Of a stretch of 64,000 nt of DNA, positions 3,002-53,863 are shown piece by piece. The notes under the pieces were generated by a model that did not search any database, had not been told where the DNA came from, and saw only the letters and a list, made by a program, of their open reading frames with translations. A program made the position numbers and the translations under genes. The stretch is from Candidatus Thalassarchaeaceae archaeon (lineage in GTDB: Archaea > Thermoplasmatota > Poseidoniia > Poseidoniales > Thalassarchaeaceae), in assembly GCA_029940695.1 (NCBI GenBank), contig JAPYUP010000004.1, forward strand, positions 9,998 through 73,997, given 5' to 3'. How positions within the stretch are numbered: the stretch's first letter is position 1; every line of letters begins with the position of its first letter.

Positions 3002-3005
3002 AAGG

Positions 3006-3239
3006 CTACTCTTTCTTCTTCGAGAGGAGCTTCATTGCATCCAAGAACTTTCGATTTTTCAGATGGTTTTCATTTGTTGCCCTAGCCTTCGCGTCCTTGC
3101 CCCCTTTTCGTTCGTACTCGACGACGTTGGTGACAAATCTCTGACTGGAAATTTTCGATTTGACGGGTTTCTTCTTGAATGGCCACACCGGTACCACAGT
3201 CCTCGAGTGAGGAAGCCAGACATCAGTATTTCGCAACAT
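3006..3239 (-). CDS. Small lysine-rich basic protein of unknown function (weak resemblance to small ribosomal or nucleic-acid-binding proteins)
   Basis: It is the only ORF in the 263-nt gap between pheT and rnhB. It encodes a 77-aa K/R-rich product (PFKKKPVKSKISSQRFVTNVV...LLSKKKE). I cannot assign a family with confidence. Confidence 0.3.
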   Translation of the reverse strand: MLRNTDVWLPHSRTVVPVWPFKKKPVKSKISSQRFVTNVVEYERKGGKDAKARATNENHLKNRKFLDAMKLLSKKKE

Positions 3240-25658: not shown

Positions 25659-25682
25659 GAATGTTGGTAGAAGTCGGGTGGC

Positions 25683-28600: not shown

Positions 28601-30014
28601 TCGTCACACCGGTCACGAAGGCGTGAATAGCGGGGCAAGTGAAGTCACCGCCCCAGTAGGTATTGCTGCTGCACGCGCCGGCCCCCTGCGTAGAGATAGT
28701 GTTGTTCGCTAGGAAGACCCGGGATGCCGAGGCCTCGGACCGGGTGTACCTTCCCGCCACGATTGGTTCCGTTCCAGTCTCGAAGATGGTGTTGTTCTCC
28801 GCGACCACGTCGAAGGAGCCGCGCAGCCATAGCCCGTTGTATCCCCCAATCGGACCAATCTCATTGTTGTGGAGGGTCGCGGTGCTGGAATAGACTGTGA
28901 TGCCAGAGGCTTGTGAGGCGCCCTCGATGTCGTTGTTGGTCAGCGTGGCCAGAGCGCCGCTGTAAAGCGTAATTCCGCTGCCTTGCACGGTCGTGATAAC
29001 ATTGTTCGAAATCTCAAAGTCGTAGTAGACCGAGCCTATGGACTTCTTGCCGTTGATGTCGATGCCGTTACAGTTGACGCTTGCAGTGGAGTTGGTGACG
29101 CTACCTGCGGATGTCCTGAGGCTGAAGCCGAAGTCACCGTCAGTGATTTCGGCATTGTCGATCTCTATGAATGACTTCTCGGCCCAGATGGCAGCACGGC
29201 CGCGGTCCCGGGTCCCACAGCCGTTGTTGGTACTGGAGAGCGTGATATCGCTGAGGGTGAAAGGGGTTATGGAGGACCCCGAGGAGTAAATCTGTAGGGC
29301 TGGACCGACAATACTCCTGCTGGCATCGTTGCCTACTACGAAGGTGCCGCCGATAAAAGAGGGTTGGGCGAGATCGGTGGTTAGGACGCTGCTAGAGTTG
29401 ACATCCATGAACTCGAGGTTGATCAAGGTCGGGCTCGCACCATCGAGAACTAAAGCCGCGTAACGGAACTCGCTGACCGCAGTGACGTAGTATGGAACTC
29501 CCCAAGGGCCATCGAAGGTGACGTGCCTCATTCCCGTCTCCGATAGGTCGATGCTGTTCCTCATCAGCACCCCTTCGTTGCAGGATGGGTCGTCGATCCA
29601 GATTTCCTGGTTGCCCTGGGATATACCCCAGCACTCGCCCCTAGCACTCGAGTTGAGCGGCTCTTCCCACCTGAGGGTTATCTTCATCGCAGAGTCGGCA
29701 TTGCTGCTGCTGCCGCACGAGATGACGCCGGCGCAGATGCTGCCTCGGACGTCCAGATGCGTTCCATTGGGGAAGGTGATAGTAGCGCCCGCTTGGATAA
29801 TGAGCTTGGCACCCGGGGCAATCGTCACGTCTCCTGTCAGTGTGTGCGTTCCAGCCCAAGTCTCGGTACCCGTGATGGTACCGGAGGTGGTCTCGTTGGA
29901 CGCGCTAACCGGATGGGCTGGTAGCGTTAGTGAGAGTAGGACGCTTGTCAAAAAGAGCGCAACGAGAGCAATGGAGCCGGCCTTACCACTCCGCGCCATA
30001 GACCCGGGCTCCAT
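25683..30014 (-). CDS. Giant surface protein (1443 aa): signal peptide, right-handed parallel beta-helix (PbH1) repeats, Ig-like modules, C-terminal TM anchor and an acidic cytoplasmic tail
   Basis: SIALVALFLTSVLLSLTLPAHPVSA signal. PbH1-like repeats (NNVITTVQGSGITLYSGALATLTNNDIEGASQASGITVYSSTATLHNNEI). TM helix GIVFGGVFVIVLLGALAYFLIEI followed by EEEEDESE...HPGWLWDPAKEEWAPDPDYHDPK. Many N-x-S/T sequons. Confidence 0.85.
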   Translation of the reverse strand: MEPGSMARSGKAGSIALVALFLTSVLLSLTLPAHPVSASNETTSGTITGTETWAGTHTLTGDVTIAPGAKLIIQAGATITFPNGTHLDVRGSICAGVISCGSSSNADSAMKITLRWEEPLNSSARGECWGISQGNQEIWIDDPSCNEGVLMRNSIDLSETGMRHVTFDGPWGVPYYVTAVSEFRYAALVLDGASPTLINLEFMDVNSSSVLTTDLAQPSFIGGTFVVGNDASRSIVGPALQIYSSGSSITPFTLSDITLSSTNNGCGTRDRGRAAIWAEKSFIEIDNAEITDGDFGFSLRTSAGSVTNSTASVNCNGIDINGKKSIGSVYYDFEISNNVITTVQGSGITLYSGALATLTNNDIEGASQASGITVYSSTATLHNNEIGPIGGYNGLWLRGSFDVVAENNTIFETGTEPIVAGRYTRSEASASRVFLANNTISTQGAGACSSNTYWGGDFTCPAIHAFVTGVTMYDNVVNAGGSADGIRSVGSLLDIQRNVFNVAKTGAVLRNFDSGYSEADQFGTLGFFSQNTWNGAEMTYNVSKSAVTVQSEYIPSPPSGEFPVRLAWQDQEAWPANGFQGRISPTPVKNCANCANMTPRNFPLALNMDNNSTVFTFANLSNLDLSKVKIATQPTHYAVQVSRAELVRFQTLIKGERVTDTLLIVEDALGNDLYSIKTESDGFTPWISLPSNFHLDFRGLGGGDNPDGFADDEYEDSCSDGIDNDGDLTLDTGDSDCNYSAGTREMSLYRFTAYKFGSGYHRGEFTLVDSSYQETVNLENLAPTVTVTQDNGHSYRRIVNITGSAHDGQLANSYATNQLAQWDQRGYVHSIQVKDPFTNAWEDAGFAVDTSGLDEGMVTKTNRPFSSWYYAFDMSSMAGEGDYTFEFRAFDGIDYSPIIFKTFKLNTLPPTIFITSPSSFSSHDGGSVQFVGMAQDPYGCPSECNKDIGLIYILIEGPNFQVTTPVQSNADGSWEWEWDFSGQPRELATFTFTAWASDSDFCDGIIDECQPVVLTLSIDNSNSQPTISVNQPQTNSRIPVSESSIISGVARDFDGEVTRVDVEVKDVSNDFITVHYASTNEFSTNGEWEIEWDTTQLRHDSDYLIRIRSYDGLDFSGWAEVGITADNPPDADNNQPVFDPAEWLSEITLFCDTESSSANRCTTANIDLLDFFSDSDGDIQYISVFNDTSGATDDNFAIVISVGGDGIAHYNPADMFFYDPDMDSWTLNDVIFIATDSFNSKVNSLPVSFIVVPIQFSIQPPEQSWVEVDGIMLYSGVGLPGKQVSVLIGGLSVNNTIVTGDGTWELGIPASRIQGTSVIPQFSYSGELSFGNRIHLGQPESEGTNWSGIVFGGVFVIVLLGALAYFLIEIEEEEDESEKSPVAFSAELEEPDDPYAWAKSSDSTPSAIVDDSLQLEQHEDHPGWLWDPAKEEWAPDPDYHDPK

Positions 30015-30056
30015 CAGGGCGATTTAACCGTAGGGTATTATCGAGCCACTGGTGGC

Positions 30057-31295
30057 TCAAATAGAATTGAACTCTAGTGCCACTTGGTTGGACCATGCCG
30101 TCGCATCTAGTATACCATAACCAATCTTAGAATCATGGGAACCATCTTGCGAAGTAGTCTTTTGGGCTGACTTGGCCAACGCGACCTTGACCAGTGCCAT
30201 TTCTTCGGGGTCAATTTTGTCGTTCTGCCCGGCAATCAACTGGCCGTGTTCCTCCAAAATGAGTGCCAGAGCACCGGTGACCAAGACAGTGGAATCGCTG
30301 GTCCCTGTCGAGTAAGCGTAAGGGGGATTACTGTGGCTGGAAGCGCAAGACCAGATAAGCACGCCGGGGGCTGAAATCTCAGGTTTCTGGTTTGGAAAAG
30401 CCCTCTCCTCGCCAGTGTATGGGTCTATAGGGGCGCCGGTGGCGCTGTCCTTCCAGGCAGTCCCGTCCCAGCCATGTGCTCCAACAGCGATGACCCGCGC
30501 GATGCTTGCAGGAGTCGAGACGTCCGAGTCGTCTGCAAACGAGTCGCTGTTCCCTGCAGCAGCGATGACGAAAATTCCCGCGTCTAAGGCCTCCATAACG
30601 GCCTCTACGGTCTCCGATTCTCCCCCCATTCCCGAACCCGGCTCGCTGCCTAGGCTCAGTGAGATGATGTCAGCGTGTTGAGAGATTCGGCACCAACGGA
30701 TTGCCTGCGACACCATTCGCTCGTCTGTCGACACTCCCGTGGGCCCTAGAGCAATGGCGATGGAGAGAGAGACCTCAGGAGCGGCACCCAAATAGGTGCC
30801 GTTTGCAACGAGGAGGCCAGCCATCAGCGTACCGTGGCTCTCATGACCAATGTCCCTAATGCTATCATGCTCTTCGCTGTATAGGTCCCTGAACCCCGCT
30901 AAGTCGACGTTAGAGAAATCAGGGTGCGAGAGATCGATTCCTGTGTCCACCATGCACACGCTAACGCCGCTTCCCAATCTGCCCGAACTCTGCAGTTCCC
31001 TAATCCCAGTGTCCTCGTAGGCCCATTCCGAATCAGGGAGAACGTGTCCCAAGAAAGGTGTAATGAGATTCCACGATAATATCAACAAAACGATGGTTAC
31101 GGAGAATCCGATTGCCCCCCACGGCCAGAGCACCTTCATTATCGGTCCAGCGGGCCAGCGCATCTCTCTCGCCTCCTCGTCTGAGACGCCATAGGCTCCC
31201 CCTGGATATCCTGGGGCATCGCTGTCAACCGTTGTAAGCAGGCTTGGCTCATCGGGTTCGGGCATCAGATCGAGATGTTCTATCCCCTGCATCAC
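30057..31295 (-). CDS. Membrane-anchored subtilisin-like serine protease (peptidase S8)
   Basis: N-terminal TM helix (WGAIGFSVTIVLLILSWNLI). The Asp/His/Ser contexts are VCMVDTGIDLSHPDF, HESHGTLMAGLL and YSTGTSDSTVLVTGALAL, with AAAGNSD as the oxyanion Asn. Confidence 0.85.
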   Translation of the reverse strand: MMQGIEHLDLMPEPDEPSLLTTVDSDAPGYPGGAYGVSDEEAREMRWPAGPIMKVLWPWGAIGFSVTIVLLILSWNLITPFLGHVLPDSEWAYEDTGIRELQSSGRLGSGVSVCMVDTGIDLSHPDFSNVDLAGFRDLYSEEHDSIRDIGHESHGTLMAGLLVANGTYLGAAPEVSLSIAIALGPTGVSTDERMVSQAIRWCRISQHADIISLSLGSEPGSGMGGESETVEAVMEALDAGIFVIAAAGNSDSFADDSDVSTPASIARVIAVGAHGWDGTAWKDSATGAPIDPYTGEERAFPNQKPEISAPGVLIWSCASSHSNPPYAYSTGTSDSTVLVTGALALILEEHGQLIAGQNDKIDPEEMALVKVALAKSAQKTTSQDGSHDSKIGYGILDATAWSNQVALEFNSI

Positions 31296-31339
31296 TGACC
31301 CTCGTGTTGCTGAGAGTCGCCTCCCATATCACTCTGTGT

Positions 31340-34300
31340 TCAGAAGGGGGCTCTCGGCCTTCTCCCAGTCCGGCGGGTCAGAGACCATAGTGCGAGTGCG
31401 AGCATGAGCAGCAACAGGTAGGTAATCCACCCGAGCACGCCTTCCTCAGCCTCTGACCATAGTTGCGCCTCCTTCACGCAGACTGATTCTCCTTCCGCTC
31501 CCTCTGTGCCACAAGCCTTCAAATCGTCTTCGTCATTAAATCCGGGGGGAATGATTTCGAATAATATGTAGTACTTGTTCGGAGTGGTGAAGTTACTGAA
31601 GTCCATTGGGATGTAGAATGCCGAAGTGCCTTGCTCAGGGATGTCACTCACTGCAGTCGAGTTCACCCCCGTGATTGACGTGCATTTGATGTCGACACAC
31701 AACGTCGCCCTCAAAGTGACATCCTTTGCAATGACATGCCCCTCATTTACCACTTCCACTACGTAAGTGGTCTTCTGGCCCACGGCAGGGTTCCCGCCAC
31801 CCTGAAGTTGGATTGTGCTTCCGTGGATCGAGAGAGCAGGAGAGTCTCTGAGGAGTGAAATTTGGTAAGTGTAGGAGTTGTTGTCGGTGTCCGACACAGT
31901 GAAGTCGATCGTGTACTCAAGGAGCTGTTCCTCCTCCTCGCCAGTGTAAGAGAGGGCCAAGGTCGTAATGCCCTCCGAGAACGGTGAGACGGGCTGTCCC
32001 TGAGGCCCCCCCAGATCCCAGTTTTCTGGGGATTGATAGTCGAAACTCAGGAATTCGTCACTGTTTCCTAGGTTCTGGAATGGTATCTGGATTTCTAGGT
32101 GTTTTTCATCTGGGCTGAAGTAGGTAGTGTCGACAAAATCTCCGGTTAAATCAAATCCGGAGAATTTGGGTACCGTCACGGATAGACTGTGCTCAGTGGA
32201 ATATCCCCCAGCGGTCGAGAACATGACCAGGATGGTGTGACCTATTTCGAAATGGTGGGCATGGCTCCTGTTTGCTGGAGTCACCCTTACTCTGAAGTTG
32301 TCTATCACCTCAGCAGTATCGAGGCCCATCTCGAACGATGCCGTACTGTTCCAACTCCCAGATTCGTTCTCGAACTCCACAAGCCATAGATTACCATCGG
32401 TTCCCAGGACAGTGCCAACTATGTCATACGTGTCGAGGGGATTGTGCCCTGAGTAATCGATGCGCAATGTGAACTCGGCGGGAGAATATTCGCAGTCGGC
32501 CTCGGCTTCGCAGCTAGAGTCTAGTTCTAAGTTGACGGCGTTCTCTCCAACGGTGGAGATCCCTATGTCCTGCTTCGGAATTAGTTCTAGGTTCAATGTC
32601 TTGAGGGGGCTGTCCTGACTGGCCCTAATTGTGACGCCTTGACCGCCCGAGTATGACATGTTCCTGCCTCGTTGCTCTACCTCGAAGTCACTAGATGCGT
32701 CTATTTGTCCGGTGGGCAACAACATCTCGAGGGTGCCATCCCCACTCAATTGCTCGGACCATGACATCCCCATGCCGATAAAAATCACTAGGTCATAGTC
32801 ATCTATCTCCGATAGAGAGAGCGATGCCCCGTCATAGTCCAGCCACTCGGTGTCTAGGAATAGCTTGCCACCGATGGAGAGTTCCGAATCTACGGCACCC
32901 CCATCGACATCGGCGTCTAGCAGATCCACAGCGACTAGGTATGAGTCCCCCTCCGGGGAGTCGACAGTGACATAGACAATCCATCTTCCAGGCTCCACTG
33001 AGGCAGTCCACTCGCCTGTCCACCCATCCGCTTCGTTCCCAACCTTATCTGGAACAACCCGATCCCTAGCGATTCCGTGTGCGGGAATCAGCACAATGTC
33101 CCAATCACCGTCAAATATCCATTCGTCAGAAATGTATGAGACGGTTCCAGAAACTTCGACTGAGCCAGCAGTAATCTCGATATTCTCGGCTTGGGCGGAT
33201 TCTCCTAGGGTGACGAAAACTGATTCAGTGGCAAAGCCGGGACTTTCCACGGTGACGTTCCAAGCGCTGCCGGACGGTAAGTAGATTGCCCAATCGCCGT
33301 TATCATCAGTCGTCAACGAATAGTTGACCTCTTCACCGGATGACAGGTTCACAAGATTGGATGCAATCGTAACCGAGACATTGGACAGACCCTCTCCGAA
33401 GCCTGGCATTTCGTCGTCGTTTAGATCCCAGTAGACATTGCCGCTCATCTCGACGAGTCTCTGCACAGTCAGATCGACGGTGTGATTGACGCCGACCGTG
33501 ACGCCTGATTCGATTAGAGATGTGTTCTCGATGACCCATCTCACGCCCTCGTTGTCAGTCTGGTTCAGTTCCACGTTCCACATTCCTGGAGTGGGCCTAA
33601 TCACGATAATCTCCAAGAAGCCAGAGGACTCTGCTGTGAAGGAGCCTAAACCGTCCTGTGAGGTGAACTTGAGCTCCATCTGGTTGAGGCTGTCACCCGA
33701 ATAGTCCTCAGAGAGGATGATGGAGACCTCAGCCAGCTCAGAGGTCCGGAAATATGCTCGAGTACCGGCAGTAACTTGGGACACGCTGATCAGGCGACGG
33801 AGGCCTTCGAACACGCCTGAACTGGTTTCAAACTCGTGAACAATCACTATCCAATCGCTCTCGGGCAAGTATTCCACAACCCTGCCTTCCTCGTTAGTGA
33901 GGAAAGTTTGAATCCAGCCGTTTTCGGTATCAACGAACACGACCTCTTGAGCGACTAGGAGACTGTCACTCTCGTTCCTGAAAGTAATGTTTACGAGCCA
34001 TAGGGGCTCGAAGCCAACCGACCTCTCGATAATCGATGGGTCCATGCCCACTTGAAACACCTCGTTGAGGTCGTAGAGAGTGTCAAACGGCTCATCGGCC
34101 GAGGCATTGGCCCTCTCAATGACAATCCTGTACCTGCCCGGTTCCAACGAAATCTCGGCCCTACCAGTGGAGACCCATTCATCACCGTCCGTGGCGACTT
34201 CGTAACCCGCACCGTTGGCTTCTAGTGACTGGATGGTGAAGGGATACCTCACTGCCGTGCCATTGGAGACGTTGTTGTCCCGATAATGATCGACGAAAAG

Positions 34301-37300
34301 ATCGATTAGGACCGTGCTGTTCTCCTCCGGGTAGACTAGAAGTTCAAGTTCCACGATGGCGGATGAATTGAGCTCCTCAATCTCGGTGCTGGAGCCCATT
34401 TCCCCGGCGTCCAGAACGAAGGTCCAGTTGCCTAGGGGCAGTATCAAGTCAAAGTGGCCATCGGGACCAACGGCCTCCCTCCAAACTCCGTCTGTGTTCC
34501 CGTCTAAGTTGTTGGCGACGACATAGACCGGTTCCCAATCCTTGAAGGCATCAGTGTAGGTGTTCCCGGGCCGGTTCAGACCAACAAAACCACTTGTCAT
34601 GGCCCCCTGTACGACAGTCAGCGAAACGTCACTCATATCCTGTGCCACAGTGAAACGGGTTCCGTTAGAGTAGAACCCGTCCACGCCCATGAGTACTTCG
34701 ATTGTGGCGTCCACTATCACGTCCACGGGGAGTATCACGCTGAAGTTGCCTTCTCTATCAGAAGTAGTCGAGAGAGTGAATCCATCCCACTGGAACACGA
34801 TTTCCTCGTTTCCCACGACTTGCTCAAAGATGCCGGTTTCCAGCTTTTCACCATGAGAGTAGTACACTGTGCCGTTAACTGTGTGGCTGACTTGGAAGCT
34901 GAATGAGTCAGACAAGTCATCCGAACCGACTTCGATACGTTGCCAGAGCTGCTTATCGTTGTCCAGGGTGTGGTTGAGTATCCAAATGCCGTAGGAAAGC
35001 TCGACTCTGTACGAATTGGACACCGAGTCATAGATTGCCAAGACTGGGCTCATCGACTCGTTTTCGGGCCGCAGGCTGATCTCGAGGTCCGAAACGGGAG
35101 AGTCGCCATCGAAGAGGGTGAAGGAGAGATCGGACGTATCTGGGATTGGGGAGGGGAAGGTGGCTACGAAATCCTCCTCGGGGAGGAAGGAGTAGGTCTG
35201 AGTTACCTCCGGGAACCCGTCGTCGTCGATGTCGACCTCGGCGATGTAAGTTCCGGGAATGATGGGTCCAATCTGGAACGCGCCATTATCGTCAGGAACG
35301 ACAATGCAGGGAGGGGCCACGGTCTGGGAACACTCCATAGTGGCATTCTCGGCCGTGTCGTTGTTCGGGAAGATGGAAATCGATCCATCAAGTGGTTCTC
35401 CTGATTGGTCGACTAAGTTGCCCTTTATGCCCCCTCCAGAAACTGATAACTGCACAGGAGCCTGAATGGCATTCAGTCCTATTAGGAAGTTGCTCTCCAG
35501 CCCCACTATTGTCCCGTCACTGAATTCGATTGAGACGTCGTACTCGCCTGGTAGGGCATCGACGAAGTGGAAGGTGCCTGGTTGGACCATCGGCCCGCTG
35601 AATATCCCGGTGCCAGAGAACATGCCTGTTCCATTGATGGTGCCATACGAAGTGAGTGGTTGCGTGGTGTCCGTCTCGAAGGTGCCCGCGCCCACGAACG
35701 TAGCTTGGTCGAGGGTTCTGGAGAACAGGCTCGTACCGTCAGCAGTGAACCTGCCTGAGGCATTTACAGTGCCGTTCAATAGGTAGTCGCCATCATCGAG
35801 CACGCAAACGACAGTATCCCGAGGGATTTCGTTATCGGGGCACGCAAGAGCCTCCGTGCTGTCTAGAAGTTCCCCTATCAGCGTGCCCTTGCCGGTGAAT
35901 ATTCCCTCACCAGTCATGCTATGATTGTTGAAAATGGACTGGGTATGTGTTCCTGTGAAGTCAGTGACTGTCACGACGCCCTCAGTTGCGGCGATCCCCT
36001 CGCCAGTGAAGATTACCTGACCAATACCGCTGAACTCCAACGACTGACCCACTACCGTGCCGTTTGAGGTAAGAGCCACGTAGGGCTCTATGGTGACCTC
36101 GTCGGAGGAAGGGGTCAGAACCACTTGAGAGCCAATGACCGGATCCGCATCGAAGTCTAGCCCGCCGGACCACGTCAAGACTCCGGTTGCAGTGGAGGGC
36201 TGGACTGTGATGGAAGCCTCTATTCGAGATTGGCCGTTGCTGTGGCCATCCGAACCAGAGACGTTGACGATGGTCTCGGAGAGCCATGTTGAGCCCGAAA
36301 CGTTGCCCAGTATACCCGTAATCGGATTGACTGTCCTCTGTTCGTTGTGCTCCGTGAACAGCTCATACATCGAATTGCCGACGTCAGAAGCCATAATCGA
36401 CGAGCGGGCGGACTCCAAATCAGGTTCCCCAGAAAAGGCGGAGATTCGGATCTTGCCTGCTGGGACCGTGAAGGAATACTCTCCGTTTTCGTTAGCTTGA
36501 GTATGGCCGATGGGTATCCAAAACGTACGCCCATCTCCGTCGATGACGCTACCATTCTCATCAGGTTCCTCCTCGCCGCTAAATGCATCTCTCTCGATTA
36601 GAATTCGAGCGTTTGGAACTGGTCCGATGCCCTCTAGCTCAACCGTTCCTTCCACGGTAGCGCCGCTGTAGTACTTGAGAACCTTAACAATCCTGTTGGA
36701 ATCATAAATGGTGCCACATAACTGGCTAATCTTCACACCGGTCTCGTTGAGCTCGCATTCGCTGCTGTCGTACCAGTTGGAGATGACGAAGTGATTCATC
36801 ATTGCACCGGGAAGGGCGAAGGCATTCTCCAAGTAAGAGCCAGGAGAGCCTGTGATTTTCGTCTGCTGAGGGTTGAGCCAGACGGAGGGCGTCTCGGCAT
36901 CACCGGGAATCCCGAGTGTAGAGGATCCATAACCCACGTAAATCCTCGCGACCATGGTCTCAAAGAACTCCGGCTGGTGCTGGTAGTCGATGTCGATCAT
37001 CCTGATGACCTCAGAGGGGTCTGAGGATGCTCCCGAGGTCTGTCTGACTAAGTCATCTAGGTACTCTGCCTCGTATTGTGCCTGAGTCCTTGGGATAATC
37101 GGGCCATCGCCCCTCTGGGTCTGGTACATCGTTGAGATATATGACTCCATATCGAGCCCTGAGAGACGAGTAGGGGCATGGAAGATGCCGGTCGTCTGCC
37201 CGCGGTGGTATTCGTAGTCGTCGTAGTAAGAGCCACCAAGTGGGAAGAGTCGGTTGTCGACTGCGAAGTATCGAATCTCGTTGTTGCGGACCACTTTGCT

Positions 37301-40300
37301 GCCCAGTGGGGAGTCGTAGTCGGAGACCTCGTACTCGATGGAGGTGATACCTTGGTAGATGTCTACTAGGGCTTCCATATCAAAGGCTGTGACGAGGAAG
37401 GCGCGCAGCAGCCCCAGCCTTGCGTTGTTTCTGTGCAGCCCCGTGGAGATGTCGTAGTAGTCATCGATTAGGTCCTTGGTGTACCTGTATCCCCCAATGT
37501 CGTAGTGCGCTGGCTCACCCGTGTCTACCTGGGAGGAGGAGGCGCGGGTCTCGTTGAACAGGGACATGGCCTCGGACTGATTCGTGGTAGGGTCGCCGAC
37601 TTGGACACCATTCTCGAGAACGACCCAAACCTTTCCTATCTGAGGAAGACCATCACTCCCAAGCTGCTCCCCGTGGAGCAGTTCGACGTCGTTGTACACA
37701 GCTATGATCGCCATGGACCTGTTGAGGACGAACTCCCTGTTGTTGTTGGAGAGTATGGCCTCGAACTCCTTGACCTGCTCGGGCGTCATGTGGGCGTTGA
37801 GGGAGGCGAGGAAGTCCTCGCCGAGCTGCTGGGAATTGAACTTCCTATCGCCCTGTGCAAGAGTAACGATGAACATCGCTAGAGTGTCTTCTTGTCCTGC
37901 TGACAAGAGCATTCCACCACTGTTAGGGATTCCCGACTGGAAGTTGTCCGCGACCGTTGGGTGTTGGCCTGAGGCCAGAGCTTGGAACCCATAGTCCCAC
38001 CATGAGACGAACGCGGGACGCTCACTGAAACCTTGTTCCGAATCCTGCTCGGAAAGCCAATTGTACGCGTGGTTCCAGCCTTGGCTGTTGAAACTAGGGC
38101 CGAAAGTGCCCATGTACCAGAGTCCAGAGGCGTCGGGGCTGTACTCCTTGCTGTTCATCACGGAGAAGATGTTGAAGAAGTCCTCCCTGAAAATATCCGG
38201 GACGATGTCGTAGATGGCTAGGTCGACGTCGTAAGCCGATTCTTCCCCCCTGGGTATGCCTGAGTCGATCCCATAGGTAGTGTGCTGGGAGGTCACTAAC
38301 AGAAGCACGATAAGAATAACCGGAACTCCGGGACGAGACTTCGATGCAGGCCATATTGACCTGAATCGAGCTCTTGGGGTTCCAATGCCAGATCTCCTCC
38401 ACTCCTTGACGAACTCGGACGAGTTGGCACGGCTCCAAAGCATGGCGATTCCGATACCGCCAACCACCGCCATCGCCGGAGTTGCGTTGATGATGAACCG
38501 GCCAGCGGTCCATGCCATGTAAGTCGCAATAATTACCCACAGTCCCAGCAGCGTCAACCCGGACTTGTTCTTACGACTGCCCCGCCATAGTAGAAAGAAG
38601 CCGCATCCTATCGCTATCAGCGCGACCACAGGGCCGTAAGAGGCGAACAGCACACCACGACTGGGTGCCTGTGCCTCACCGATGGTGCCGAAGATCTTGT
38701 TCTTCGAGAAGTAGAATCCCCCTGTGAACAGGATGTCCCATCCGTCGTATACATCGGTGGCTTGGAGCAGGTAGAGGGCACCTAGAATCGTGCCGAACAG
38801 AGCTGTTCCGCTGATGACGACGAGCAGCCATGGCTTGTCTCTGAAGGAACTAGCAACCCATCCCATCGCGAACGTGAACCCGATGATGTAGAACATCGGC
38901 TGCATGCCGCTGGGTGCAAAGACCAGATTCAAGCCTGGCCATCCGTAGAACGGTAGTGGGAGGAGGATGGCGGTCATCATCATCTGAAGTGCGGCAGAGG
39001 TGAATTGGAGGCTGTCTCTGCCACGGAAGATGTTAATGGCAACTTGAACCGAATATGCGAGGAAGAGGATTCCGGGCCCATAGACGAATCCCTTCCAACC
39101 GAGTGCCATTATCGTGAATGCGATTCCAGACATCGTTGCGTTTGCCATCACTACAGGATTCTGCTTCCAGCTCTCCCTCATTCCAGCAATCAAGTAAAGC
39201 GGGTTCGGACTGGAAGATTCGAACAGTCTCTTGTGCTCGAGGCCGGCGAGAGCCCTTATCCAGAAGTAGAACGCCGTGGCTAGGAAAAGCATGGCGAACG
39301 AATCGTGATCGACCATAGCGAATGTCGACCTGCTAATGTGTCCAGGCATCAGCGCGATTAGCCATGCCGATATGATGCCGGCAGTCCTGCTGTGGACCCT
39401 AGTAGCAATACCTGCAATGGGTATGACGATGAGTGCGCCATAAATAGCAGGCAAGGCGGATACGCTCCACCAGACTGCCTGCTCTGAGGGAATCTCTAGC
39501 AGCCAGGATAGACCCAGTCCTCCAAGTGCGAGGGACCATGAGAACAGCGGTGGTCGGGGGTTTATTCCCCCAAGGGGATATGCCCTATCGTGATCGAAGA
39601 TGAGGTGGCTCCTCTCTGCGATGACGTAGTCGACGACCCTCTTCATGTACCATGGATCGGAACCCCCAGTCATGTCCCAGAGTCCCGTTCCCGACGCATT
39701 CATTGCAGGGATTACGTTCCATGCGGTTCTAACGGTTAGCGCAGTGACCAAGGCTAGGCCGACTAGGATCCCGTAGGAATTTGATTTCCACCAGATTCTG
39801 AAGCCACTTGGCTCCCTTTGGGGGGCGATGTCTCCGAAGACCCCTCGAGACGCGGCCATGATTCCGAAGAAATTTAGCCAGAACCCGACGAAGAACCACG
39901 AGGACGAGCCAATCAAGCCCCCTTCGTCGAGTGGGTACGGGAACTCGTTGCCGATCTCATGAAGATGGCCCATGGTGTACAACATCCAGTTTACCGCTAG
40001 CAACACACCGATAACGTGCCAACCCTCTGCTCGGAAGAAGGCATGCAATAGGATGGCCACGGTCGTGAATATCGCCCAGATGACTCCGAGATGGCGGGAC
40101 TCTGAGAACGCCTCGATGTCTCCAATCTGCCCCAACCAGACCAGTGGAATCAGTTGAACCACGAAGATGAGCACAGCGTAGATTATTGTCTCTCGACTGT
40201 GGGGGGGCGTAGGGATTACAGACATCATCGAGCCGGAGCCCACATTCTCAAATGTGCCCCTCAGAGCAATCATGACAGTAATTCCGAGTGCTATCGATGC

Positions 40301-40840
40301 AAACCAGAACGCGAAGAACGCAGAGCCGATTGCCTCTCTCTCGAAGTCTACAAACTGAGCAGTCGCAGCACCGTCGATAATCCCTAATCCTCCAGCGTAG
40401 GACGTTGCAAAATGCAGCCCCACAATAATGGATAGGAAGATGCTTGACTCTTCGAACCGCCTTGATTCTACTAGGTATCCTGTTACCGAACCAACCAAGA
40501 AAAACGTAGCGATGAACGAGTTGTCGAACATTGAATGGTCAAATGTGTTCGCCGCGAACGCGATTGCCAGCAGTCCGATTGACAGGGCCGAAACGCGGAG
40601 GCCTACAGAGGAGTTGAGTCTTAGCCAAGGGGACATTCTGCCAATGCATGCTGAGGCTAGGGCTGCTAGGGGAAGGGTCAGGGAACTGACAAAGTAGTCA
40701 TTGTCGATTGAGCGGCCCTCTATTTGCGAGAGTGCTAGGAAGAGCGTGGTCAGCATCGCAGTGATGGCGATTGGTGAGGCAAGTCCGGGGGGTCGGGGGG
40801 TGTCTTGGGATGCTTCGTTATCGGTTTCCATCACACCCAC
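31340..40840 (-). CDS. aglB: Giant fusion protein (3166 aa): extra N-terminal polytopic membrane block, then an STT3/AglB oligosaccharyltransferase core, then ~2000 aa of extracellular Ig/CarboxypepD_reg-like repeats, then a C-terminal TM anchor
   Basis: EL1-like GGSDPWYMKRVVDYV..FDHDRAYPLGGINPRPPLFSW. The catalytic motif SWWDYGFQ is at nt 37988-38002 (residues 947-951). CarboxypepD_reg-like GTVELEGIGPVPNARILIE...ENGEYSFTVPAGKIRISAF. The C-terminus is GWITYLLLLMLALALWSLTRRTGRRPRAPF. The frame is continuous, with a start at GTG 40840 or ATG 40831. Confidence 0.8.
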   Translation of the reverse strand: MGVMETDNEASQDTPRPPGLASPIAITAMLTTLFLALSQIEGRSIDNDYFVSSLTLPLAALASACIGRMSPWLRLNSSVGLRVSALSIGLLAIAFAANTFDHSMFDNSFIATFFLVGSVTGYLVESRRFEESSIFLSIIVGLHFATSYAGGLGIIDGAATAQFVDFEREAIGSAFFAFWFASIALGITVMIALRGTFENVGSGSMMSVIPTPPHSRETIIYAVLIFVVQLIPLVWLGQIGDIEAFSESRHLGVIWAIFTTVAILLHAFFRAEGWHVIGVLLAVNWMLYTMGHLHEIGNEFPYPLDEGGLIGSSSWFFVGFWLNFFGIMAASRGVFGDIAPQREPSGFRIWWKSNSYGILVGLALVTALTVRTAWNVIPAMNASGTGLWDMTGGSDPWYMKRVVDYVIAERSHLIFDHDRAYPLGGINPRPPLFSWSLALGGLGLSWLLEIPSEQAVWWSVSALPAIYGALIVIPIAGIATRVHSRTAGIISAWLIALMPGHISRSTFAMVDHDSFAMLFLATAFYFWIRALAGLEHKRLFESSSPNPLYLIAGMRESWKQNPVVMANATMSGIAFTIMALGWKGFVYGPGILFLAYSVQVAINIFRGRDSLQFTSAALQMMMTAILLPLPFYGWPGLNLVFAPSGMQPMFYIIGFTFAMGWVASSFRDKPWLLVVISGTALFGTILGALYLLQATDVYDGWDILFTGGFYFSKNKIFGTIGEAQAPSRGVLFASYGPVVALIAIGCGFFLLWRGSRKNKSGLTLLGLWVIIATYMAWTAGRFIINATPAMAVVGGIGIAMLWSRANSSEFVKEWRRSGIGTPRARFRSIWPASKSRPGVPVILIVLLLVTSQHTTYGIDSGIPRGEESAYDVDLAIYDIVPDIFREDFFNIFSVMNSKEYSPDASGLWYMGTFGPSFNSQGWNHAYNWLSEQDSEQGFSERPAFVSWWDYGFQALASGQHPTVADNFQSGIPNSGGMLLSAGQEDTLAMFIVTLAQGDRKFNSQQLGEDFLASLNAHMTPEQVKEFEAILSNNNREFVLNRSMAIIAVYNDVELLHGEQLGSDGLPQIGKVWVVLENGVQVGDPTTNQSEAMSLFNETRASSSQVDTGEPAHYDIGGYRYTKDLIDDYYDISTGLHRNNARLGLLRAFLVTAFDMEALVDIYQGITSIEYEVSDYDSPLGSKVVRNNEIRYFAVDNRLFPLGGSYYDDYEYHRGQTTGIFHAPTRLSGLDMESYISTMYQTQRGDGPIIPRTQAQYEAEYLDDLVRQTSGASSDPSEVIRMIDIDYQHQPEFFETMVARIYVGYGSSTLGIPGDAETPSVWLNPQQTKITGSPGSYLENAFALPGAMMNHFVISNWYDSSECELNETGVKISQLCGTIYDSNRIVKVLKYYSGATVEGTVELEGIGPVPNARILIERDAFSGEEEPDENGSVIDGDGRTFWIPIGHTQANENGEYSFTVPAGKIRISAFSGEPDLESARSSIMASDVGNSMYELFTEHNEQRTVNPITGILGNVSGSTWLSETIVNVSGSDGHSNGQSRIEASITVQPSTATGVLTWSGGLDFDADPVIGSQVVLTPSSDEVTIEPYVALTSNGTVVGQSLEFSGIGQVIFTGEGIAATEGVVTVTDFTGTHTQSIFNNHSMTGEGIFTGKGTLIGELLDSTEALACPDNEIPRDTVVCVLDDGDYLLNGTVNASGRFTADGTSLFSRTLDQATFVGAGTFETDTTQPLTSYGTINGTGMFSGTGIFSGPMVQPGTFHFVDALPGEYDVSIEFSDGTIVGLESNFLIGLNAIQAPVQLSVSGGGIKGNLVDQSGEPLDGSISIFPNNDTAENATMECSQTVAPPCIVVPDDNGAFQIGPIIPGTYIAEVDIDDDGFPEVTQTYSFLPEEDFVATFPSPIPDTSDLSFTLFDGDSPVSDLEISLRPENESMSPVLAIYDSVSNSYRVELSYGIWILNHTLDNDKQLWQRIEVGSDDLSDSFSFQVSHTVNGTVYYSHGEKLETGIFEQVVGNEEIVFQWDGFTLSTTSDREGNFSVILPVDVIVDATIEVLMGVDGFYSNGTRFTVAQDMSDVSLTVVQGAMTSGFVGLNRPGNTYTDAFKDWEPVYVVANNLDGNTDGVWREAVGPDGHFDLILPLGNWTFVLDAGEMGSSTEIEELNSSAIVELELLVYPEENSTVLIDLFVDHYRDNNVSNGTAVRYPFTIQSLEANGAGYEVATDGDEWVSTGRAEISLEPGRYRIVIERANASADEPFDTLYDLNEVFQVGMDPSIIERSVGFEPLWLVNITFRNESDSLLVAQEVVFVDTENGWIQTFLTNEEGRVVEYLPESDWIVIVHEFETSSGVFEGLRRLISVSQVTAGTRAYFRTSELAEVSIILSEDYSGDSLNQMELKFTSQDGLGSFTAESSGFLEIIVIRPTPGMWNVELNQTDNEGVRWVIENTSLIESGVTVGVNHTVDLTVQRLVEMSGNVYWDLNDDEMPGFGEGLSNVSVTIASNLVNLSSGEEVNYSLTTDDNGDWAIYLPSGSAWNVTVESPGFATESVFVTLGESAQAENIEITAGSVEVSGTVSYISDEWIFDGDWDIVLIPAHGIARDRVVPDKVGNEADGWTGEWTASVEPGRWIVYVTVDSPEGDSYLVAVDLLDADVDGGAVDSELSIGGKLFLDTEWLDYDGASLSLSEIDDYDLVIFIGMGMSWSEQLSGDGTLEMLLPTGQIDASSDFEVEQRGRNMSYSGGQGVTIRASQDSPLKTLNLELIPKQDIGISTVGENAVNLELDSSCEAEADCEYSPAEFTLRIDYSGHNPLDTYDIVGTVLGTDGNLWLVEFENESGSWNSTASFEMGLDTAEVIDNFRVRVTPANRSHAHHFEIGHTILVMFSTAGGYSTEHSLSVTVPKFSGFDLTGDFVDTTYFSPDEKHLEIQIPFQNLGNSDEFLSFDYQSPENWDLGGPQGQPVSPFSEGITTLALSYTGEEEEQLLEYTIDFTVSDTDNNSYTYQISLLRDSPALSIHGSTIQLQGGGNPAVGQKTTYVVEVVNEGHVIAKDVTLRATLCVDIKCTSITGVNSTAVSDIPEQGTSAFYIPMDFSNFTTPNKYYILFEIIPPGFNDEDDLKACGTEGAEGESVCVKEAQLWSEAEEGVLGWITYLLLLMLALALWSLTRRTGRRPRAPF

Positions 40841-42268: not shown

Positions 42269-42985
42269 TCAGTACGGGACGGACTTCAGGCCGAGGCTAT
42301 ATCCGAGGAGGTTGAATGCTCGATGAATAACCGGGGTGATGAGCAGCAGTATTGCCATCCCCATCACCAGATCCGAGCTGCCAACGATAGACGGGTCCAG
42401 CAATAACTGGCCGAAAAGGAAGGTGGAAATAGCGAATGGGAGGGTGTCGAGCAGTGGTGCCTCGGAGCTCTCGTCGCCTTCCCTCTTGTGCCCGAGACGA
42501 CGCTTGACGAAAGAGCCAGCAGAATCGCCGACCATGCAACCAAAACCCAGCACGCATCCAAGCACGAAAACTGCCCCCCATTCGCCACCAAGCCAGAACC
42601 AGGCATCCGAAGTAACCCCTGTCATCGGATCGATGAAGGGGGCATCCGAGTCTTCACTACCCTTGGAAAGGGCGTGAGTGAGCATGCCGAGCAGCCCACC
42701 ACCCAAAGTTCCGCCAACTAGGCCGTTCCAAGTCTTCCCATCCCCTAGGAGCCTGTTACCATCGCCATGCACCCTCTCCCCGTCTATGGGCTTCACAGCC
42801 ATTCCGGTCATTTCCGGAATCCACTTGCCACCAAGCATCGCGGTGGTATTAGAGAGGTATCCCGGAAGATAGAGCCACAGTACTAGCAAGGGCGCGATTA
42901 AGGGGCTGTACTCAGAAGCCATCGGGTTGAGCACGCCGCTTGGGCGGTTGAACTTTCGCACACCACGAAACGAGATTGAGTCCAT
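42269..42985 (-). CDS. carS: CDP-archaeol synthase (CDP-2,3-bis-O-geranylgeranyl-sn-glycerol synthase, DUF46)
   Basis: LYLPGYLSNTTAMLGG, LGDGKTWNGLVGG and GSFVKRRLG...PLLDTLPF match the CarS pattern. The true start is probably the ATG at 42922 (MASEYSPL...). Confidence 0.8.
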   Translation of the reverse strand: MDSISFRGVRKFNRPSGVLNPMASEYSPLIAPLLVLWLYLPGYLSNTTAMLGGKWIPEMTGMAVKPIDGERVHGDGNRLLGDGKTWNGLVGGTLGGGLLGMLTHALSKGSEDSDAPFIDPMTGVTSDAWFWLGGEWGAVFVLGCVLGFGCMVGDSAGSFVKRRLGHKREGDESSEAPLLDTLPFAISTFLFGQLLLDPSIVGSSDLVMGMAILLLITPVIHRAFNLLGYSLGLKSVPY

Positions 42986-43035
42986 TGATTCGCGGACATG
43001 CCGCCGTGATGTTCATTGCCCCCACAGCCAGCCGA

Positions 43036-44775
43036 ATGACAATGAACGGCAGAAGCGCCCTAGTGGTTTGCATGGTTCTAATCTCAGCTGGGATTGTTCT
43101 ACCATCTGGTGCATTGGCTGAGAGTGGGGAGGATATCCTAATCGAATCTGACATGACTTGGGGGCAGGACATGACCCTGTCACAGAATGTCAGAGTCATC
43201 AACGGTGGATCTCTGACCTTCTCGAACGCCCAAGTCACCCTAGAGACTGGAGTGGATATCTACGTAGGCCCAACTTCTTCAATCACGATAGATAACTCAG
43301 GATTGGTGGCTGCAGATCCACCTGGTGGACTAGTTGGCTATGGCTACTGTGATGAGGGCAATCGTTCAGGAATCGGGGTAGAATGGCCAGATCCTGGAAG
43401 GCGACTTGAAGTCGTACTAACTGCGATTGAACCATCAAGCCTAGATGGGGTCACGGCATACTTTGGGGATGATTCTGAGTCCCTGAGTGGAGCAGAGGAC
43501 TCTATCGTTTTCGATTTGGGGACGGAGGGTGAAATTTGGATCGATTTGGTTGGGCCATTTTGCTACCCACCTTCTCTGAGTGATGTAAGTGTGAAAAGAG
43601 CAAATTCGGGAGTCTCGGATTGTCAAGGTTGTCAATCGGGAAGCGCTGCCGACTTCGAGCACAGGAACATGATGGTCCACGGGGATCCCGGGTTCACCGT
43701 GACGATCGAAGGAGAAATGCGAGCAAATGGCTCGAGACTAGTTGGCGGGAAGATTACCAATGCAGGACAAATGTCGATCAATGACACGTCATTGGATAGA
43801 GTTGGCCCAGTCATACTGACCACGGACGATGCCTCGATTTTCATTTCAGGGACCACTGACTTCACCAACAGCACTGACGACCATGATGTCAGGGCAAGGG
43901 CCCACAGCTCAATAGAATGGGGAGAGGATGTAAGCGGGTCCGGCGGACTCACCGACAAATGGGAAAGGAGGCTTGCAGGACAGCGCCTCAGTTTCGAAGC
44001 CAGATACGTCACATACGAGATAACTGGAATGCACAGTCCACCATCCTACAGTAGCTTCAGCGACGAGAACGGGGTTTCCTACGTCAATGGGGGTGATGAG
44101 AGGGTGGTCGAAATCGCCTGGTCCGATGACAACACATGGGAAGATGGGCTCATTTGGACCGAGCAGGCTGTCGTGACGATACAGAGCTACAGGACGGCTT
44201 GGAATCCGGAGAACTCGGAAATCGGAAACTACGGTGGAGGGGGATTTCCCCTGACATGGCAGGCTGAGATAATCGTCGACCAAGCAACTCCCAACATTCA
44301 ATGGACCTCACTGCAGGGTGTGCGGGATGGCAATTCCACCTACACTGCCACTCTAGGAGAGTCCTTGGCCATTGAGGCCGTAATTACAAACACGGGCACC
44401 GCAGCAGCGATCCTTGCCATAGATTGCAATGTCACCAGTACGGGAATCGCAGCGGAGATGTCCCCGACTTGGCCCAATGCAATGATAGGGGCGGGGGGCG
44501 AGGAAACCATCCACTTCAGCTGGAGGACGTCCAATACCGGGGAGGACAGTCTGACTTGTCGTGTCCTGACTCCTACTCAACTCGTCGACGATCTATCCTT
44601 TGGGGGTGGGGAGATCACTAGCGGAGCGATAACTTGGGAGGAGGCCGGCGAAGAGGAGGGACTGCCTTACATCCTACCAATCATGCTGGCGCTGGTAGTG
44701 GGAATCGCAATCGCGGGATTCGTAGCCGTCTATAGGATGAACGAAATCGATGAGGAAGGCCGTTCGCCGGAGTAA
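43036..44775 (+). CDS. Surface protein with a signal peptide, a beta-helix-cap-like N-terminus, a CARDB-like domain and a C-terminal TM anchor
   Basis: MTMNGRSALVVCMVLISAGIVLPSGALA signal, ESLAIEAVITNTGTAAAILAIDCNVT (CARDB-like), and the TM helix LPYILPIMLALVVGIAIAGFVAVY. An internal ATG was chosen over the ORF-track start at 42976, which overlaps carS. Confidence 0.6.
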   Translation: MTMNGRSALVVCMVLISAGIVLPSGALAESGEDILIESDMTWGQDMTLSQNVRVINGGSLTFSNAQVTLETGVDIYVGPTSSITIDNSGLVAADPPGGLVGYGYCDEGNRSGIGVEWPDPGRRLEVVLTAIEPSSLDGVTAYFGDDSESLSGAEDSIVFDLGTEGEIWIDLVGPFCYPPSLSDVSVKRANSGVSDCQGCQSGSAADFEHRNMMVHGDPGFTVTIEGEMRANGSRLVGGKITNAGQMSINDTSLDRVGPVILTTDDASIFISGTTDFTNSTDDHDVRARAHSSIEWGEDVSGSGGLTDKWERRLAGQRLSFEARYVTYEITGMHSPPSYSSFSDENGVSYVNGGDERVVEIAWSDDNTWEDGLIWTEQAVVTIQSYRTAWNPENSEIGNYGGGGFPLTWQAEIIVDQATPNIQWTSLQGVRDGNSTYTATLGESLAIEAVITNTGTAAAILAIDCNVTSTGIAAEMSPTWPNAMIGAGGEETIHFSWRTSNTGEDSLTCRVLTPTQLVDDLSFGGGEITSGAITWEEAGEEEGLPYILPIMLALVVGIAIAGFVAVYRMNEIDEEGRSPE

Positions 44776-53347: not shown

Positions 53348-53863
53348 ATGGGTTCATTCGGGTCCGTTCGATGGATGGGCGTAAGCATGCCGTGGTCAAG
53401 AATCGAGGTCGAGGTCGAGGGCGATGAGCAAGAGGGTGGCGGTTTGGATTCCCTCAAGATTGGATTAGACGTAGATGTACAGCAGATGCACGAGTTGTTC
53501 CTTGGGGGGCTGCCACACCTCTCCGAGGTACAAGGCCGCCATGAGGAGATTTTAGACGGAGTTTCCAGCACGATAGGTGACGCGAAATCCCTCGCTAGGG
53601 CTGCGGTTCCAATAGGGGATTTCCTAGCAGAGATCGGAGGGGAGTGGTCAGGCTCGGAGGTCAGAATACCCCTTCCCTCTTCCTTCCCAGAGAGAGTAGT
53701 CGTCGAGACGCTCTTGGAAGAGGGGAAGCAAATAGTGCGCCTCATCTCACCAGAGAGGTTCGGCGGGTTGCTCAGAACGTTCAGGCTTCCCGTGGGAGAG
53801 GTCATAATGGGGGCTAACTGGGAAGGTGGTGTCCTTACCATGAAGACGAGTCAGTCAGGCTAG
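53348..53863 (+). CDS. Hypothetical protein with a weak Hsp20/alpha-crystallin-like C-terminus
   Basis: It starts 4 nt after the xpd stop. Its C-terminal LLRTFRLPVGEVIMGANWEGGVLTM resembles the sHSP F-R-L-P...A....GVL-I strand pattern. The rest is unassigned. Confidence 0.35.
   Translation: MGSFGSVRWMGVSMPWSRIEVEVEGDEQEGGGLDSLKIGLDVDVQQMHELFLGGLPHLSEVQGRHEEILDGVSSTIGDAKSLARAAVPIGDFLAEIGGEWSGSEVRIPLPSSFPERVVVETLLEEGKQIVRLISPERFGGLLRTFRLPVGEVIMGANWEGGVLTMKTSQSG

Follow-up and report, generated by a model that had tools for sequence, protein, structure and literature searches.

The 64-kb window examined here (64,000 nucleotides of contig JAPYUP010000004.1 from a Candidatus Thalassarchaeaceae archaeon; coordinates below are positions in this window) encodes a giant protein of the AglB/STT3 family of oligosaccharyltransferases (OSTs). 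We think it probable that this protein is an active AglB with a permanently attached, self-glycosylated, and doubly anchored scaffold, in a Marine Group II archaeon (Poseidoniales). Its architecture, the integrity of its motifs, its conservation at full length, the transcription of an orthologue, and the conservation of its N-x-S/T sequons are established directly. An earlier note, made by a model from the sequence alone, had described a single uninterrupted 9.5-kb open reading frame (ORF) with about 350 N-terminal residues of extra hydrophobic helices that have no STT3 counterpart, an AglB/STT3 core with the first external loop and a WWDYG motif at residues 947–951 (nucleotides 37988–38002), and a C-terminal transmembrane (TM) helix with a basic tail. 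It had also proposed that the enzyme, an extracellular tail of about 2,000 residues, and the second anchor form one polypeptide. All of these features held up, and the coordinates of the motif agree.

The gene and the parts of its product are listed here, with the evidence or conservation of each part.

31340..40840, minus strand: whole aglB ORF; 3166 codons counted from GTG; stop codon at 31340-31342
39806..40840, minus strand: N-terminal extension, residues 1-345 (AlphaFold2 model, loop charges, profile searches)
38261..39805, minus strand: STT3/AglB multi-span membrane domain, residues ~346-860 (Pfam STT3, TIGR04154, 3WAJ alignment, Foldseek)
39647..39667, minus strand: GGSDPWY in the first external loop, residues 392-398; catalytic-type Asp D395; invariant in the family
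39296..39313, minus strand: VDHDSF, second diacidic motif, residues 510-515; D511, H512, and D513 invariant
38675..38686, minus strand: TIGE, a TIXE-type motif, residues 719-722; T719, I720, and E722 invariant
36671..38260, minus strand: AglB extracytoplasmic alpha/beta domain, residues ~861-1390; holds WWDYG, Q1022, E1025, and I1029
37988..38002, minus strand: WWDYG, residues 947-951; invariant in the family
31466..36670, minus strand: extracellular beta-sandwich array, residues ~1391-3125 (~1,735 residues) (model, Foldseek, Pfam, sequons)
33188..33397, minus strand: CarboxypepD_reg (PF13620) module, residues 2482-2551 (40.8 bits versus a threshold of 32.3)
31343..31465, minus strand: C-terminal TM helix and cytoplasmic tail; hydrophobic segment 3131-3156, then TRRTGRRPRAPF

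One long gene in many genomes

The 3166-codon frame contains no internal stop codons (ORF analysis), and its GC content is even along the ORF (0.52–0.56). The true start is probably the ATG at codon 4 (nucleotide 40831), which would give a product of 3163 amino acids, because all family members have M4 and the closest orthologue, at 93% identity, also has 3163 amino acids. When we searched for homologues, we obtained more than 120 proteins of 3,140–3,340 amino acids with 47–93% identity and approximately 100% coverage, and the full-length orthologues came from ENA, JGI, NCBI, Tara, and Logan assemblies. The earlier note had proposed looking for the same fusion in related genomes. When we scanned one genome per GTDB species, relatives were encoded in 466 species-level genomes. 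The best 80 of these are all Poseidoniales, mostly Thalassarchaeaceae (MGIIb), and they include single-cell genomes and long-read metagenome-assembled genomes (MAGs). Contigs bearing full-length orthologues reach 1.6–1.7 Mb.

Given a prior expectation of 600–1,100 amino acids for an AglB, the long ORF might have been an assembly chimera, or a frameshift might have hidden an ordinary aglB gene and a separate surface-protein gene, as the earlier note had cautioned. Among the loci that we fetched, 55 have an aglB frame that is not cut by a contig end. The frame is intact, at 3,147–3,346 codons, in 51 of these, and the product ends in APF in 52. Broken frames do occur in a few MAG loci, and two of the four loci with short frames were traced. 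In L038 (BPDA01000004.1), several frameshifts split the orthologue over several frames, and in L050 (DAMG01000079.1), it is interrupted by runs of N; both breaks look like assembly or scaffolding defects rather than true pseudogenes. Because the full-length ORF is kept in dozens of independent assemblies (including the single-cell genomes and long-read MAGs), and in the 466-genome scan and is intact in 51 of 55 loci, and because GC is even across it, a chimera or hidden frameshift is excluded; we regard an artifact as practically impossible.

An orthologue of this gene has already been catalogued and is transcribed, as it is listed in the tables of a published study (PMC9723583). In the supplementary gene table, the orthologue is gene 305 of SIMO Bin 19-2 (27778–37315), which sits between purD and a halolysin-type S8 gene, is annotated as aglB with a GT66 match at 9.3e-75, and corresponds in eggNOG to MG2_1283, a gene from a previous reference genome of Marine Group II (PMC9723583). 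The same study reports that activity of genus O1 goes along with a higher abundance of the 9.5-kb orthologue in field metatranscriptomes (log2 fold change of 2.05). Among the available entries of one MAG gene table, only gene 305 carries the aglB label, and of the two available GT66 entries (out of five in that table), only gene 305 is significant. In the databases, relatives are named STT3 or dolichyl-phosphooligosaccharide-protein glycotransferase.

According to the earlier note, the architecture had no described precedent. This is only partly right: in the searchable literature on archaeal AglB, STT3, and OST, we found no paper that discusses the size or architecture of a giant AglB, but the orthologue is catalogued as aglB and the general plan is common in Thermoplasmatota (see below). 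What appears to be undescribed is the discussion of the architecture, while the enzyme family itself is known. Our search for the Poseidoniales cell envelope found nothing in the searchable papers, and a query for S-layers was uninformative.

The catalytic core and the helices before it

From its motifs and its similarity to known enzymes, we infer that the protein is an active OST of the AglB/STT3 family (CAZy GT66). The Pfam STT3 model (PF02516), which the earlier note had suggested running, matches residues 394–795 significantly (E = 9e-12, 45.7 bits versus a cut-off of 24.5) and also matched 15 of the 15 family members that were scanned. NCBIfam's TIGR04154 matches residues 359–981 (E = 4e-47). 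In the phmmer alignment with AglB from Archaeoglobus fulgidus (3WAJ), GGSDPWY pairs with GGNDPWY, VDHD pairs with NDHH, and WWDYG pairs with WWDYG. T719–E722 (TIGE) fits the TIXE/SVSE-type motif of external loop 5 in PglB and AglB, a loop to which we assign it by its position. Alignments of 40, 48, and 15 homologues show no variation at D395, D511/H512/D513, T719/I720/E722, or WWDYG. STT3, AglB, and PglB proteins are recognized by a pair of DXD-type diacidic motifs within their membrane region (PMC3703281), and the giant AglB has both of them (GGSD395PWY and VD511HD513).

The structure model of residues 1–1200 agrees with this assignment. For this model (AlphaFold2, built on 39 homologues, with a mean predicted local distance difference test score, or pLDDT, of 68), each of the top 15 Foldseek matches in the PDB is an AglB or STT3 protein (E of 6e-6 to 2e-2), and the best are A. 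fulgidus AglB and the eukaryotic proteins STT3A, STT3B, and Stt3. The modeled order of a multi-span GT-C fold followed by an external alpha/beta domain is what is found in this family, and we place moderate confidence in it.

The best match in both sequence and fold is AglB-L from A. fulgidus (PDB 3WAJ/3WAK/5GMY/7E9S; 868–875 amino acids), although the identity is only about 16%. The two proteins share the order of the acidic motif of external loop 1, the second diacidic motif, and WWDYG, and in both, a membrane domain leads into an external alpha/beta domain that bears peripheral beta units. Relative to AglB-L, the giant AglB adds ten N-terminal TM helices, approximately 1,735 residues of beta-sandwich, and a second anchor.

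Some of the evidence weighs against an active AglB. The TIGR04154 score (161.2 bits) is far under the curated cut-off of 450, and we regard the protein as related to the archaeosortase A system-associated STT3 subfamily but not as one of its members. Also, the pocket for the Ser/Thr of the sequon is marked by a motif on a kinked helix, which is either DK (DXXKXXX(M/I), or a variant with an insertion) or MI (MXXIXXX(I/V/W)) (PMC3703281), and we found no confident match to the canonical form of either in the core sequence. The DK-variant motif of A. fulgidus AglB (E613...K618; PMC3703281) has no clear counterpart either. The only pattern with DK/MI-like spacing is Q1022-x-x-E1025-x-x-x-I1029, which lies about 75 residues past WWDYG and has i, i+3, i+7 spacing; Q1022 and I1029 are invariant and E1025 is nearly so. 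We treat this pattern as a candidate because pLDDT is below 50 at the catalytic loops and in the WWDYG region of the AlphaFold2 model.

These observations could also be read to mean that the STT3 part is catalytically dead, that the protein is a structural component of the envelope, and that another enzyme performs N-glycosylation; indeed, there could be a second aglB in the genome. We consider this highly improbable. Across the clade, neither WWDYG nor any of the acidic residues that bind metal or act in catalysis varies, and the core is the best-conserved part of the protein (column identity of 0.65–0.84), which would be unexpected for a dead enzyme. The alpha/beta domain is well conserved too (0.46–0.80).

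The active AglB that we favor begins with an unusual membrane region. In the AlphaFold2 model, the ten predicted TM helices of the extension (residues 21–40, 47–68, 79–100, 107–125, 129–150, 161–193, 217–238, 252–271, 275–295, and 309–331) all precede the helix at 346–381 that is equivalent to TM1 of STT3, and block pLDDT over residues 1–345 is mostly 75–92. With an even number of helices, the N-terminus and the start of STT3 TM1 would both lie inside, and the loop charges agree with this: there are eight lysines plus arginines in the loops of the extension predicted to be inside and two in those predicted to be outside. The extension was found only in the clade of proteins of about 3,150 amino acids, in which every named member is from Poseidoniales or from an unclassified Euryarchaeota MAG.

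We could not link the extension to any known family or stand-alone partner. A homologue search gave only fragments of the same gene, the profile of the extension found nothing in the PDB below E = 1.4, and there was no consistent match to Pfam. We also ruled out that it is a duplicate of the STT3 membrane part or internally duplicated, as hhalign gave a probability of just 0.3% for the extension against the STT3 TM region and for one half against the other.

The tail, its anchor, and their relatives

By length, we estimate that the tail comprises roughly 18 modules. The AlphaFold2 model of residues 1201–2400 has a mean pLDDT of 83 and is nearly all beta strand from about residue 1394 on. Foldseek matched this model to strings of CnaB/Ig/prealbumin-like domains, including those of TIE from Bacillus anthracis (2e-12), PitA, SpaC, the SdrD B repeats, RrgB, and BcpA, as well as to the MG domains of alpha-2-macroglobulin. 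The CarboxypepD_reg module, a beta-sandwich of the prealbumin/transthyretin-like kind, is the sole tail module above the Pfam threshold in the query, was seen in 15 of 15 family members, and is linked by internal profile matches to three more segments of the tail (E from 5e-4 to 2e-2). Thus, of the earlier note's claim of about 2,000 residues of beta-sandwich repeats, the all-beta modules are borne out, but just one of them passes Pfam in the query. Across the 15 members, every family that Pfam identifies in the tail is a beta-sandwich: CarboxypepD_reg, SdrD_B, SpaA, Big_1, NOMO-like, NPCBM_assoc, DUF11, and CARDB. The tail also has an invariant pair of cysteines (1667/1679) and an invariant DxDxDG-like motif (D1870/D1872/D1874).

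Neither Pfam on the 15 members, nor a profile search of the PDB, nor Foldseek identified a catalytic or lectin domain in the tail. (One member had a lone match to UDP-g_GGTase with E = 0.003, which we judged to be noise.) Column identity is 0.62–0.69 up to residue 1600 and 0.35–0.55 in the remainder of the tail, a pattern that points to moderate purifying selection rather than to a hypervariable surface antigen.

The resemblance to the stalks of Gram-positive pilins and adhesins raises the possibility that the tail mainly binds particles, cells, or polymers, and that the OST core serves as its anchor and glycosylating partner. TIE, PitA, SpaC, SdrD B, and RrgB are the best structural matches for the tail, and the beads-on-a-string layout is alike. 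The likeness is at the level of the fold (8–13% identity), however, and it reflects a generic beta-sandwich stalk. Foldseek and Pfam on the 15 members found no tip or ligand-binding domain. Unlike those stalks (including BcpA), the giant AglB is archaeal, lacks a sortase signal and a tip adhesin domain, and is anchored at both ends, which is atypical for adhesins. Moreover, the tail shows moderate conservation and, across the phylum, colinearity (see below), and the gene is kept in 466 genomes. Overall, we find an adhesin distinctly unlikely.

The tail is rich in sequons. Residues 1351–3125 contain 38 N-x-S/T sequons versus 15.5 ± 3.4 in shuffled sequences (z = 6.7, or 2.5-fold), and the enrichment is conserved: family tails have a mean of 38.9 sequons versus 20.0 expected (mean z = 5.0), and the tails of distant relatives have a mean of 32.9 versus 14.0 expected (mean z = 5.7). 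Among the 47 sequons in the query, 26 recur at the corresponding column of the alignment in half or more of 39 homologues, and the sequons at N785, N1526, and N2193 are present in all 39. Because the enrichment is conserved and so many of the positions are kept, the tail is very probably N-glycosylated.

The earlier note was correct that the tail is dense in sequons, but this is not special to the aglB product: within the window, the strongest enrichment is in the ORF at 53860-62808 (minus strand), with 87 sequons versus 30.7 expected (z = 11). Its product (2982 amino acids) has a transglutaminase core and Big_3_5, TSP3 repeat, CarboxypepD_reg, and DUF4129 domains according to Pfam, and it is probably a giant N-glycosylated surface protein. 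Another exported glycoprotein is probably encoded at 11179-12321 (plus strand; 380 amino acids; 9 sequons versus 2.7 expected, z = 4). Because other surface proteins of the organism are more sequon-rich, an enzyme fused to its own giant substrate, as the earlier note proposed, is indistinguishable from an enzyme with an ordinary glycosylated ectodomain, and we do not support that claim as stated. It holds only in a weaker form: as with other exported proteins of this organism, the ectodomain is probably a substrate of the OST.

The last 36 residues of the protein comprise the hydrophobic helix at 3131–3156 and TRRTGRRPRAPF. This RRPxAPF end is distinctive. Close orthologues all end in RR..APF-COOH, and the terminal Phe persists throughout the extension-bearing Poseidoniales clade. 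We ruled out that RRPxAPF is a general sorting signal: it occurs once in the 64-kb window, and among 2,236 frames of at least 100 codons from 84 loci plus the window (approximately 1.6 Mb), the RR..APF end is specific to aglB and two broken aglB fragments. A PGF-CTERM tripeptide before the last helix is absent from the query and its clade, and no motif is conserved there; as far as the sequence indicates, the protein is not a PGF-CTERM substrate of archaeosortase A.

To place the architecture, we ran an exhaustive HMMER search with residues 340–1100 of the core and obtained 780 cluster representatives at E ≤ 0.001. The nearest full-length representatives have about 3,150–3,230 amino acids, and their core begins at residue 325–390, so they carry the N-terminal extension. 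More than 80 of the best 150 representatives are 27–38% identical and have about 1,900–2,800 amino acids; in these, the core begins at residue 20–100, so the extension is missing. The named ones are Thermoplasmata or Thermoplasmatota MAG proteins. Nearly all complete relatives end in a TM helix and a basic tail, and the order of Pfam domains in distant relatives is STT3, AglB_core, several CarboxypepD_reg/SdrD_B/NOMO-like domains, CARDB or NPCBM_assoc, and TM.

Direct phmmer similarity between the query's tail and the distant tails is almost nil. In contrast, a profile-profile comparison of the Poseidoniales family with 45 distant cluster representatives of 2,080–2,220 amino acids gave a colinear alignment over residues 341–3016 (1,996 columns, 23% identity, E = 4e-176), although many alternative registers also score because the modules repeat. 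Given the colinear profiles and the same domain order, the plan of core, tail, and second anchor appears to be ancient and widespread in Thermoplasmatota. Giant STT3 proteins of about 2,000–2,800 amino acids, the named ones being from Thermoplasmatota MAGs, such as MFA5772382.1 (“carboxypeptidase regulatory-like domain-containing protein”) and MCL5785875.1 (“glycosyltransferase family 39 protein”), share this plan, the sequon-enriched tails, and the profile colinearity with the query family. Their core is 27–38% identical to the query's, and they lack the ten-helix extension and RRPxAPF. To judge from these alignments, the Poseidoniales form adds the ten-helix extension, approximately 1,000 further tail residues, and the RRPxAPF end.

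Several of the distant giant STT3 proteins (P0143, P0153, P0159, P0162, P0185, P0230, and P0236; 2,200–2,700 amino acids) have a PGF-CTERM-like motif, such as PIPGFEV or MPGFEAL, ahead of their final helix. These motifs suggest that archaeosortase A could, in some lineages, process the far end of the AglB tail and give it a lipid anchor.

Taking these features together, we infer enzymatic activity, glycosylation of the tail, its topology, and a scaffold role as follows. The membrane core would take a lipid-linked glycan and, as in other AglB proteins, transfer it to the Asn of N-x-S/T in proteins that emerge at the outside of the membrane. As the tail lies between the core and the final TM helix, the chain should leave the membrane at the catalytic domain and re-enter it about 2,200 residues later. 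The tail may then be a structural, self-glycosylated scaffold or arch that is tethered beside the enzyme, rather than an independent cargo, and it might act as an envelope spacer, an element of the glycocalyx, or a platform for handling substrates.

By analogy, such a scaffold would resemble the single-pass beta-sandwich accessory subunits of the eukaryotic OST. In ribophorin I/Ost1, ribophorin II/Swp1, and OST48/Wbp1, and also in NOMO, a single C-terminal TM helix keeps external beta-sandwiches next to STT3. This is a similarity in how the proteins may work: the eukaryotic subunits are separate polypeptides, and no homology of the query to the ribophorins was detected. NOMO-type Pfam models and the NOMO2 chain match the tail marginally (E = 0.017; 2 of 15 members), and we do not claim membership.

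A bolder version is that the C-terminal helix docks on the ten-helix domain, so that a glycosylated tail of about 1,700 residues closes into an arch above the active site and a single chain combines the OST with an accessory arch or envelope organizer. The extension and the terminal-Phe tail co-occur across the clade. This co-occurrence and the gene-specific tail motif fit docking but are not proof of it, because both mark one clade, and we hold a closed arch to be unlikely. If it were true, then envelope spacing or the handling of nascent glycoproteins would be the task of the arch, and this device would have its ancestral form in the shorter proteins of Thermoplasmatota.

Neighboring genes and implications

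The order of genes around aglB (CarS, purD, aglB, S8 peptidase, beta-helix protein, and AAA/TPR) is conserved down to 47% protein identity. Four of the neighbors are as follows.

30057-31295, minus strand: S8 subtilase, directly downstream of aglB after a 44-bp gap
25683-30014, minus strand: right-handed beta-helix/Big_7 protein, 1443 amino acids, downstream of the S8 gene
23097-25658, minus strand: AAA_16 + TPR ATPase, 853 amino acids, downstream of the beta-helix gene
42976-44775, plus strand: 599-amino-acid ORF with no Pfam match; C-terminal TM helix and acidic tail

The three genes at 23097-31295 are on the same strand as aglB with short gaps and are in the same order in L001 and L002, at 47% identity. 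In the fetched loci, the S8 gene is near aglB in 57 and the beta-helix gene in 56. The cluster could be a set of envelope-related genes or plain synteny.

The S8 gene suggests another way to read the fusion: the chain might be cut after translocation, for example by the adjacent S8 protease, into an ordinary AglB and a C-terminally anchored surface glycoprotein, in which case the fusion would serve only co-expression and co-localization. The S8 gene begins just 44 bp past aglB and is downstream of it in the 57 loci and in the locus at 47% identity, the published MAG table shows a halolysin beside aglB (PMC9723583), and the C-terminal anchor would hold the released tail on the cell. Yet we did not identify a cleavage site or a conserved linker in the protein, and the junction of the AglB domain with the first beta-sandwich (1200–1500) is among the best-conserved parts rather than a loose linker. 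One distant relative that we examined has the same architecture without an adjacent S8 gene. The adjacency may also be plain synteny, because the upstream purD and CarS are equally conserved. We therefore think that a polyprotein is quite unlikely.

As for the rest of the window, the 599-amino-acid ORF at 42976-44775 adjoins CarS in 61 fetched loci. The ORF at 16394-22120 (minus strand) encodes 1908 amino acids whose only Pfam match is a bacterial TSP3 (thrombospondin type 3, calcium-binding) repeat, and L001 and L002 have a 1916-amino-acid orthologue at the same relative position. Another ORF, at 48382-51294 (plus strand), encodes 970 amino acids with a PPDK_N (PEP-utilizing, AMP/ATP-binding) domain and, at the N-terminus, a weak match to a response-regulator receiver that is under the Pfam cut-off. 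ARAGORN found no tRNA or tmRNA genes in the window.

In the surface ocean, the uncultured Poseidoniales rank among the most abundant archaea (PMC9723583). If the giant protein is an active AglB with an attached scaffold, as we favor, then they carry out N-glycosylation with an enzyme about three times the size of any characterized AglB. Annotation of such giant aglB genes is inconsistent (hypothetical protein, GT39, carboxypeptidase regulatory-like, or STT3). The plan shared across Thermoplasmatota suggests an accessory function of OSTs, unstudied in archaea, that structural work on compact AglBs would not reveal, and candidates for this function are envelope spacing, substrate handling, and glycocalyx formation. 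These proteins may offer a natural single-chain system for asking what the non-catalytic modules of OSTs do.

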